Of a stretch of 64,000 nucleotides of DNA, positions 31,795 to 59,729 are shown one piece after another (the stretch's first letter is position 1; each line of letters opens with the position of its first letter). The position numbers were made by a program, and so were the translations under genes. The notes under the pieces are model-generated. The model had not been told where the DNA came from, ran no database searches, and saw only the letters and a program-made list of their open reading frames with translations. Source of the stretch: Octopus vulgaris (lineage: Eukaryota); the NCBI GenBank assembly GCA_951406725.2, contig OX597822.1, positions 82,336,001 to 82,400,000 of the forward strand, written 5' to 3'.

Positions 31795-32126
31795 CATTAT
31801 TTATATTACTTACATTATTTACATTTGACGATATTTGTCCTCATCTTTTTTTTGTTGTTAACACGTTTCGGCTGATATACCTTCCAGCCTTCATCAGGTG
31901 TCCTGGGGAAATTTCGAACCTGGGTTCTCATTCCTAAGGTATTTTTCGATGTATTTTTCAATACCTCAGGAATGAAAACCCAGGTTCAAAATTTCCCCAA
32001 GACACCTGATGAAGGCTGGAGGGTATATCAGCCGAAACATTATGTTAACAACAAACAGGATGAGGACAAATATCCCTCAAATGTAAAATAATGTACATAA
32101 TTCCTCATCTCTTAAATATAGAACTG
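31795..32126. mobile_element. Penelope-like inverted pseudo-LTR insertion with a hammerhead in each arm and an 11-bp TSD
   Basis: Arms ~31811-31943 and 31960-32095; catcacatgat duplicated at 31784-31794 and 32127-32137. Confidence 0.8.
32001..32046 (+). ncRNA. Minimal type I hammerhead ribozyme motif (mirror copy on minus at 31858-31902)
   Basis: GACAC CTGATGA aGGCTG gagggtatat CAGCC GAAA CA TT ATGTT; the mirror keeps GAAACG. Confidence 0.7.
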
Positions 32127-58135: not shown

Positions 58136-58173
<38 letters not shown>

Positions 58174-58348
58174 TAAATATTAGGGAATAAATCCAAATTT
58201 ACAGGGAAAAAAATCAGATTTAGGATTAAATCCAATTTTATAGTAAAATATTATAAAATATTATTAGAGACAAAACCACTATTTTGCAAAACAAACAAGG
58301 AAAGACTTAATCAATACATAAAATTTTAATAAATAGTCAAAAAAACCG

Positions 58349-58391
58349 CCACTACAATTGTTTCTTGTCTTGATCGACAATCTTCAGGTGG
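58349..58391 (-). ncRNA. Identical hammerhead motif on the minus strand (left arm of the palindrome)
   Basis: Exact reverse complement of 58438-58480. Confidence 0.85.
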
Positions 58392-58437
58392 ACTTCCAAT
58401 AAGTCAGTTTCAAATTTGAAACTGACTTATTGGAAGT

Positions 58438-58480
58438 CCACCTGAAGATTGTCGATCAAGACAAGAAACAATTGTAGTGG
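58438..58480 (+). ncRNA. Intact minimal type I hammerhead ribozyme motif
   Basis: CCAC CTGAAGA TTGTC gatcaa GACAA GAAA CAATTG TA GTGG; predicted cleavage after GUA at 58476. Confidence 0.85.
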
Positions 58481-59729
58481 CGGTTTTTTTGACTATTTAT
58501 TAAAATTTTATGTATTGATTAAGTCTTTCCTTGTTTGTTTTGCAAAATAGTGGTTTTGTCTCTAATAATATTTTATATATATATACATACATAGAGAGAA
58601 TATAAAGAAAGTCAGAAGGTATGATTTATTTCACCAGTTGATCTCCATAGGATAACAGCTGTTCCATAGCCAACACTATGCAAAAATAATTTAGTTTAAT
58701 GTATAATAAATTATTTTACATGTCTGCCCTAGTGTGTATGCTATAAATTGCATAGTATAAATCAATGTAGATATAGAAGGCTAGCTCATCAGATCAACAG
58801 GATATCACATCAATTTTTCAGCTCCATTATTCACAATAACTATTTTATCTATAACTTTAATACACTGGACATACAATTCATACAAACACTTGTGTTACTT
58901 TTGGTGAACAAATAGTTTCTCTAACTCAAACCTTTCAAATGGATTATTGCAGCAAACGTATTTAAAAAATGTTAAAAGAGATACTCTGGAGTTATAAGTT
59001 TGAATTTTCTGAGGGTCTATGGCTATCTTTTTTTTATTTTAATTTTCTTTTTAACATGGCTGTGTGGTATGAAACTTCCTTCCCAACCACATGGCTTTGA
59101 ATTCAATCCCATTGTGTGACACCTTGGGCAAGTGTCTTCTCCTATAGCCTCAGGCCGACCAAAACCTTGTGAGTGGATTTGGTAGATGGAAACTGAAAGA
59201 AGCCTATTGTGACTGGGAAGCAAACTTCTTACCATACAGCCATGCTTGCACCCACAGGGGCTACATAACTCTTGGTTTCATACTATATACTTTGGATTTC
59301 TGATTTTTAAATGTTTGTTCAGATTTGGAATGGATTCTGTGAAATGGTCATAGAAGAGGCAATAGCCATTTTCTCTAAAGTATGTCAGAAAAGAAAACAG
59401 ATAATTTTTTCTAAGCTAAGGGGAAAATATTCTTAGTAGAAAGGCAATAACTCAAAAACCAGGCCGCAAAATTATGTCACCTGGAATGATAAATGATTTA
59501 AAAGTTTGTAAGATCAGAATGAAGAAAAGACATGTGGACAGATTGATGGACTGATCGACGGACAGAGAAGAGGGGAAGAGAGATAAGAGGGGAAAAGATA
59601 AAGAAGAATAGAAAGAGAAAGGGAATGAAGGAGTACACAGAGGTCAGACAGAAATGAGAGACAGGTATAGAGGGAGTGGCTTAGAGCAGTACCTAAGGAT
59701 GTATTACCTTTCATGTATAATATGCCAGT

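Follow-up and report, generated by a model that had tools for sequence, protein, structure and literature searches.

A perfect palindrome of 326 bp, carrying a hammerhead ribozyme motif on each strand, interrupts a (TA)n tract in the genome of Octopus vulgaris, and it raises the question of what process could have set two copies of one sequence so exactly against each other. The locus lies in a 64,000-nucleotide stretch of contig OX597822.1 that was analysed as a whole and is referred to here as the window. Taken singly, the locus is ordinary for its family; it is the family that bears on an open mechanistic question, the formation of inverted repeats and the keeping of introns by Penelope-like elements (PLEs), both called unresolved in PMC3846280 and PMC8557442. 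PLEs are the sister group of telomerase, and the hundreds of near-identical products found here allow models of their mechanism to be separated.

Results and Discussion

Structure of the palindrome locus

The arms (58252-58414 and 58415-58577) measure 163 nt each and are 100% complementary with a spacer of 0, and (TA)n lies on both sides of the insertion, exactly as the original prediction from the sequence had described. Also borne out was its statement that the left arm runs about 84 bp past the palindrome, the extension being 84 nt long (Table 1). The last ATA of the short arm is shared with the target. Among the loci sampled around complete long arms, the left flank was TA-rich in 30 of 30.

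Chimeric reads typically show perfect palindromes. Fold-back during assembly or library preparation is nonetheless very unlikely, because the flanks are unmirrored, the tail is one-sided and over 100 loci repeat the layout while differing in their centres and showing arms that diverge. The exact 48-bp centre of the window's palindrome was itself found at 16 loci, in different places on 11 contigs, so that the palindrome is not unique and its earlier reading as a genuine insertion stands.

Table 1. Features of the insertion and of its flanks, in positions of the window
Feature	Position	Strand	Remark
(TA)n target, left flank	58138..58167	.	3' end is the putative primer of the long arm
Long (putatively distal-primed) arm	58168..58416	-	Apparent copy of spliced sense RNA; runs from exon 1 as far as the distal start site
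84-nt tail between distal and proximal start sites	58168..58251	-	End positions cluster at two sites
Predicted 13-bp stem-loop within the tail	58210..58239	-	Candidate protein-binding element
Minimal type I hammerhead motif, long arm	58349..58391	-
Exon 1/exon 2 splice junction, long arm	58400..58401	-	1,845-nt GT-AG intron absent
Self-complementary AATT common to both arms	58413..58416	.	Apparent microhomology join; same centre at 16 loci
Short (putatively proximal-primed) arm	58413..58577	+	Apparent second copy of spliced RNA, ends at the proximal start site
Exon 1/exon 2 splice junction, short arm	58428..58429	+
Minimal type I hammerhead motif, short arm	58438..58480	+	Predicted cut after 58476
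(TA)n target, right flank	58575..58585	.	Bottom-strand 3' end is the putative primer of the short arm

A young family and its parent element

The 247-nt long arm has 1,116 candidate matches in the genome, of which the 40 that were scored are 98-100% identical, and the ribozyme 40-mer has 499 exact occurrences. Over 245-246 nt the long arm is matched without a difference by six other copies, in agreement with the recent insertion originally proposed. Long copies were reached via widely spaced inverted matches, and at 7 of 20 loci they contained open frames that are 838-841 codons long and share one start. The finding of a parent with such intact frames supports the PLE origin that had been suggested for the palindrome, as well as the suggestion that the family may be active; judged from these frames, it probably is.

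The 840-aa ORF displays reverse transcriptase (YRDD) and GIY-YIG-type endonuclease (VVY...YIG) motifs, together with RIKWK at position 41, DKT at 128, CTCRDKSNC at 691, CYLC at 797 and CRH at 826. CTCRDKSNC corresponds to a CxCX5C linker, CYLC to CxxC and CRH to CxH, and a CCHH motif is, by eye, absent. A Pfam search gave no significant match to the ORF, and the assignment to EN+ PLEs therefore rests on the motifs and on 40 homologues, the named ones of which are in Argonauta and Octopus. The Hydra clade is defined by an RWK motif, DKT, the CxCX5C linker, CxxC and CxH on either side of a conserved E/N, and a (TA)n target (PMC8557442); by its motifs and its (TA)n target the octopus parent would belong there. 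Layout is likewise that of EN+ PLEs, with a partial-tandem pseudo-LTR (the tandem at one locus gives a unit of 6,327 bp), an inverted 5'-truncated copy and a one-sided tail. As far as its sequence tells, the palindrome is a routine product of this young Hydra-clade PLE and derives from the 5' region (pseudo-LTR), the distal start site lying about 54 nt upstream of the first ATG of the ORF in full copies.

One parental ORF (L097) has an Asn-rich insert (31% N) at residues of about 480-700, between reverse transcriptase and endonuclease; Asn-rich ORF inserts are described in bdelloid PLEs (PMC3846280). The insertion at another locus is adjoined by a separate GIY-YIG-like frame (L088, 5111-5500), which belongs to a different type of PLE. 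Older relatives of 81-90% identity (L047, L052, L053), having other sequence at the position of exon 1, form short head-to-head palindromes too, which makes it likely that this process was already at work in earlier subfamilies.

Two fixed ends and concordant arms

A non-random sample of loci, 30 of them chosen for a complete long arm, 25 for a G followed by exon 1 and most others by position on contigs C1-C5, yielded 301 arms; 18 arms of less than 88% identity were dropped, which left 121 head-to-head pairs. In these the outer ends are fixed within a few bases and the centres vary, some 30 different short ones being present. A distal end was combined with a proximal one, at sites 84 nt apart, in 113 of the 121 pairs; two further pairs were distal with distal (one of them a mis-pairing of two separate insertions), one was proximal with proximal, and five had odd ends or ends continuing into the ORF. 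The ratio of 113 in 116 departs from one half with a p of 6e-30. Spliced pairs follow the rule in 88 of 92 cases, and unspliced pairs, which reach 9 kb, in 24 of 27. The segment between the two sites corresponds to the tail of the PLE literature (PMC8557442, PMC11167929). Its predicted stem-loop has a folding z of -4.39 in a chosen 41-mer, compared with only -1.31 for the whole 95-nt tail region.

The two arms of a pair agree closely in what they copy. Splice form was concordant in all 85 fully classed pairs (52 with the main junction, 7 with one shifted by four bases, 26 unspliced). In the 93 pairs with complete arms, 48 recurrent variants were present in both arms and 13 in one, against a mean of 7.6 and a maximum of 18 shared variants after shuffling; the three commonest variants agreed between arms in 44 of 45 cases. 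Private variants were shared by the arms in 10 instances and unshared in 40, and 51 pairs had no substitution between arms. Reach towards the 5' end was not significantly biased to either arm (86 pairs: short arm further in 29, long arm in 38, equal in 19; p 0.33). Unpaired spliced arms comprised 11 proximal and 11 distal ones, or 9 and 9 without four that carry small inverted remnants.

An array was met at G000:C9:50396400-50399650 (L258-L269), where the head-to-head arms repeat a 250-bp unit in tandem (about 3 and 9.6 times); the unit spans both start sites and the ORF start and is devoid of the ribozyme, and the outer ends are again proximal and distal. The arrangement suggests that both primers copied a small circular RNA by a rolling-circle process, or else copied a multimer.

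At the opposite end of the arms, 36 of 41 spliced arms with complete exon 1 terminate at the same initiator-like A, and the other five run further upstream, which counts against a fully fixed 5' boundary. The genomic base preceding that A is C, whereas the arms (n=36) have G there in 21 cases, A in 10, T in 4 and C in 1; the pattern used skipped arms with a G six bases upstream. The excess of G would fit a capped start, if weakly, because many of the 21 G bases could derive from the opposite arm.

The missing intron

In full copies, 1,845 nt with a GTAAGT start and a pyrimidine-rich AG end separate the 23-nt exon 1 from the sequence preceding the ribozyme. In both arms of the window's palindrome exon 1 is joined precisely (Table 1), and across the genome spliced junctions outnumber unspliced acceptors by 419 to 294 (arms, counted by exact patterns). 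Intron retention, which is typical of EN+ PLEs although not universal among them, is thus not seen in the window's copy or at these 419 junctions. The second junction class retains four extra bases, up to the next GT, and this +4 form was found in 13 of 20 spliced arms of the lineage having GA-mutated copies of exon 1, compared with 8 of 125 of the other lineage (Fisher p 9e-9); lineages with an intact donor yield unspliced, main and +4 forms. The four commonest haplotypes are present in spliced and unspliced pairs alike, and the intron has thus been lost repeatedly. Arms of spliced form require a sense RNA as their template, and on the evidence of the genomic copies that template was spliced sense RNA.

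Seven spliced arms with the main junction carry a haplotype first seen only with GA-mutated donors. The simple notion that the lineage had lost its donor was dropped, three of its members (L278, L279, L282) keeping an intact GT donor. Some intact-GT copies of the lineage hold a second, GA-type copy of exon 1 inside the intron; in L279, L280 and L281 this second exon-1/donor copy, with GA in place of GT, lies about 1.2 kb downstream. Intron length differs between lineages.

Copies that run through the distal site into the ORF's beginning were unspliced in 18 cases, truncated before the acceptor in 6 and spliced in none (n=24 non-array copies; the ORF-continuing pattern gave 36 matches), and among the 173 spliced arms of the main sample none went on into the ORF. 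Upstream extent was checked in six spliced copies and came to about 300 nt at most. Spliced mRNA would accordingly give rise to short copies only, dead ends lacking the ORF and an intact promoter, and the ORF would travel on unspliced or read-through RNA.

The hammerhead motif in its RNA context

The core pattern matches once per arm, at 58442-58476 on the plus strand and 58353-58387 on the minus strand, and has 4 matches in the 64-kb window versus 0.28 expected. The motif comprises the CUGANGA and GAAA cores, stems I and II, a short palindromic helix III and an NUH. All the helices named in the original prediction are present; its description of the motif as fully canonical is slightly too strong, because the stem II pair closing next to the core is U-A in place of the G10.1-C11.1 pair that Cervera and de la Pena describe as highly conserved (PMC4209133). 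Rfam returned no hammerhead match, only weak miRNA-hairpin matches to the palindrome and to microsatellites, and in free folding the ribozyme was not the best structure, with a probability of 0.018 even in the isolated 43-mer.

It had been supposed that read-through from either side yields the same RNA, able to fold as ribozyme or as duplex. The sameness holds over the 326 bp and only there. The proposed switch disagrees with the predicted energies, -271 to -275 kcal/mol for the duplex (163-bp hairpin) against -5.4 kcal/mol for the hammerhead, and with the order of synthesis, the antisense arm being made first from either side. According to the prediction, any transcript reading through the locus would keep the ribozyme buried, which makes it a passenger here.

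The hammerhead was uncut in the RNA that was copied into the arms, and the intron acceptor sits 9 nt upstream of stem I (compare PMC4209133 for a hammerhead in the pseudo-LTR just behind a 5' UTR intron). Truncation points (n=23) did not cluster at the predicted ribozyme cut site. One full-ORF-side copy (L242, G000:C1:218253583) has its 5' end at that site, a single hint of possible cleavage in vivo.

A second and older inverted hammerhead pair, with an arm identity of 84%, is located at 31805-32100 of the window and belongs to a separate family (2,089 candidates). Its relatives, inspected by eye (L207-L235), show a tRNA-like head with A-/B-box-like motifs, an (AAT)n stretch and the ribozyme, and L219, L221, L223, L224, L233 and L234 are inverted head to head. 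ARAGORN detected no tRNA in 6 of 6 loci of this family, and a literature search found no paper on it; it may represent a SINE mobilised by a PLE.

Proposed mechanism and alternatives

The strict pairing of ends and the matching splice form point to one RNA primed twice, and the insertion is probably best understood as two head-to-head, intron-less copies of a PLE 5' end obtained in this way. To proceed, the PLE protein would nick both strands of the (TA)n tract, and both 3' ends would prime on one spliced sense RNA, one of them at the proximal site and the other at the distal site 84 nt downstream. Both cDNAs would then pass the uncut hammerhead and the splice junction towards the cap, with the trailing cDNA displacing the leading one, until the cDNA 3' ends anneal at a short microhomology (here AATT) and repair fills in. 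The zero-spacer centre, and with it the perfect palindrome, would be due to the self-complementarity of the AATT join. We infer the copying of the cap, the single RNA molecule, the strand displacement and the order of events from the finished products. The anole PLE studied in vitro cleaves both target strands and extends them, begins synthesis at two internal sites between which the tail lies, and uses or even prefers uncut RNA (PMC11167929). Its start site is no different between strands, and that result alone therefore leaves the strict pairing of distal with proximal ends unexplained. Counter to a single template stand the 13 recurrent variants confined to one arm, and counter to a strict rule the three pairs with like ends, one of which is the mis-pairing noted above.

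The original prediction had instead invoked a hairpin intermediate, and related self-priming has been proposed in PMC3846280. In its present form, a distal-primed cDNA would reach the 5' end of the spliced RNA, snap back and copy itself; the endonuclease would nick the copy at the proximal site, and later deletions at the centre would vary the join. Arm concordance and distal-proximal pairing would thereby be accounted for together, as would the ten private variants common to both arms; many centres could form small loops, and Craig et al. attribute the tail to endonuclease resolution (PMC8557442). The tail boundaries observed in vitro are, however, starts of reverse transcription (PMC11167929), and the window's centre is loopless. 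Moreover, 29 of 86 short arms hold RNA sequence missing from the long arm, the latter sometimes cut by more than 100 nt, and solo proximal arms match solo distal arms in frequency, so that frequent later deletion would have to be assumed for outreaching and solo short arms alike. The version with an antisense template (PMC3846280) makes intron-less copies impossible. A simple fold-back hairpin thus fits worse than double priming and is considered unlikely, although deletions that struck the centre once the insertion was in place could remove the traces of a hairpin intermediate.

If a protein dimer held two sister RNAs transcribed at one source locus, with each subunit geometrically fixed to one start site, the RNAs would share their haplotype and strand displacement would be unnecessary; a dimer is predicted for the anole PLE protein (PMC11167929). 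Arms that never differ in splice form (85/85) are difficult to reconcile with such an arrangement, given that intact-donor lineages produce three forms, and we think it quite unlikely. Amplification of a non-autonomous palindromic, intron-less master copy as a unit could explain one exact centre at 16 loci and the 98-100% identity of the 40 copies scored. It is highly improbable in view of the roughly 30 different short centres, the differing target junctions of same-centre copies, the haplotypes that occur in unspliced copies too, the three junction forms and the distal-proximal layout kept by long unspliced copies.

As a broader proposal, which we advance tentatively and with somewhat more doubt than belief, PLE integration may involve obligate double priming, the two nicked target strands priming one RNA at two fixed sites, that creates the inverted repeat and the one-sided tail together, with intron retention acting as a product filter. 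Spliced mRNA would on this view give ORF-less palindromes and nothing else, since the 5' intron comes immediately before the start sites. If this were true, intron retention in PLEs would reflect a filter on propagating products and not be the sign of an antisense template, and ORF-bearing copies would stem from unspliced or read-through RNA.

Relation to known systems

Inverted pseudo-LTRs, one-sided tails, junction palindromes and opposite-strand hammerheads have been described already (PMC3846280, PMC8557442, PMC4209133). The closest relatives appear to be PLEs of the Hydra clade, including Hydra-1_Obim of Octopus bimaculoides (Craig et al. 2021, PMC8557442), which are alike in the RWK-like motif, DKT, CxCX5C, the C-terminal GIY-YIG-type endonuclease with CxxC and CxH near the end, the hammerhead and the (TA)n target. 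Hydra elements are described there as smaller than 3 kb, whereas the octopus unit has 6.3 kb and a 1.8-kb 5' intron, and the tail is 30-40 nt as opposed to 84 nt in the octopus family; Hydra-1_Obim is listed at 2,507 bp with no pLTR. The PLEs with inverted pseudo-LTRs (Arkhipova et al. 2013, PMC3846280; Schostak et al. 2008, PMC2377424) resemble the octopus family in head-to-head layout, microhomology join, one-arm tail, TCACT-like initiator, 5' UTR intron and Asn-rich ORF insert. Their palindromes were attributed to self-priming from an antisense template, a model that would explain intron retention (PMC3846280); in the octopus family, by contrast, spliced arms outnumber unspliced ones, and a sense template is needed.

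Minimal hammerheads on opposite strands, 100-700 bp apart, are mentioned for Schistosoma in one sentence and without mechanism in the available text of Cervera and de la Pena (2014, PMC4209133); the signature is the same, and so are motif class and palindromic helix III. Non-LTR retrozymes (10.64898/2026.07.22.740005) are similarly short, non-coding, hammerhead-bearing and derived from PLE pseudo-LTRs, but they are head-to-tail tandem arrays of units each with a hammerhead, whereas the palindrome is an inverted pair of spliced 5' ends; the sole tandem array found, that of 250-bp units, has no hammerhead.

A literature search returned no report of abundant spliced PLE copies, of paired start-site use or of twin priming in PLEs, with the proviso that Arkhipova 2003/2006 and Evgen'ev and Arkhipova 2005 may mention such copies. 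Through this family an animal germline receives long palindromes, perfect or nearly so, that may be fragile sites and, if read through, sources of dsRNA.

There is a mechanistic analogy to the twin priming of L1, in which both 3' ends of the target prime one RNA and the cDNAs join by microhomology to give an inversion. The internal site is variable in L1 and the two cDNAs cover mostly different parts of the RNA; in the octopus PLE the second site is constant, and one and the same 5' part is represented in both cDNAs. The Anolis Poseidon PLE named PAc (Frangieh et al. 2024, PMC11167929) is alike in the two internal start sites bounding the tail, the AT-rich target, the cutting and extension of both strands and the dispensability of hammerhead cleavage. 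Pairing of the sites within an insertion and spliced copies are not reported for PAc in the available text, and the octopus family differs from it in that its start sites precede the first ATG and have 2-5 nt in common with the target.
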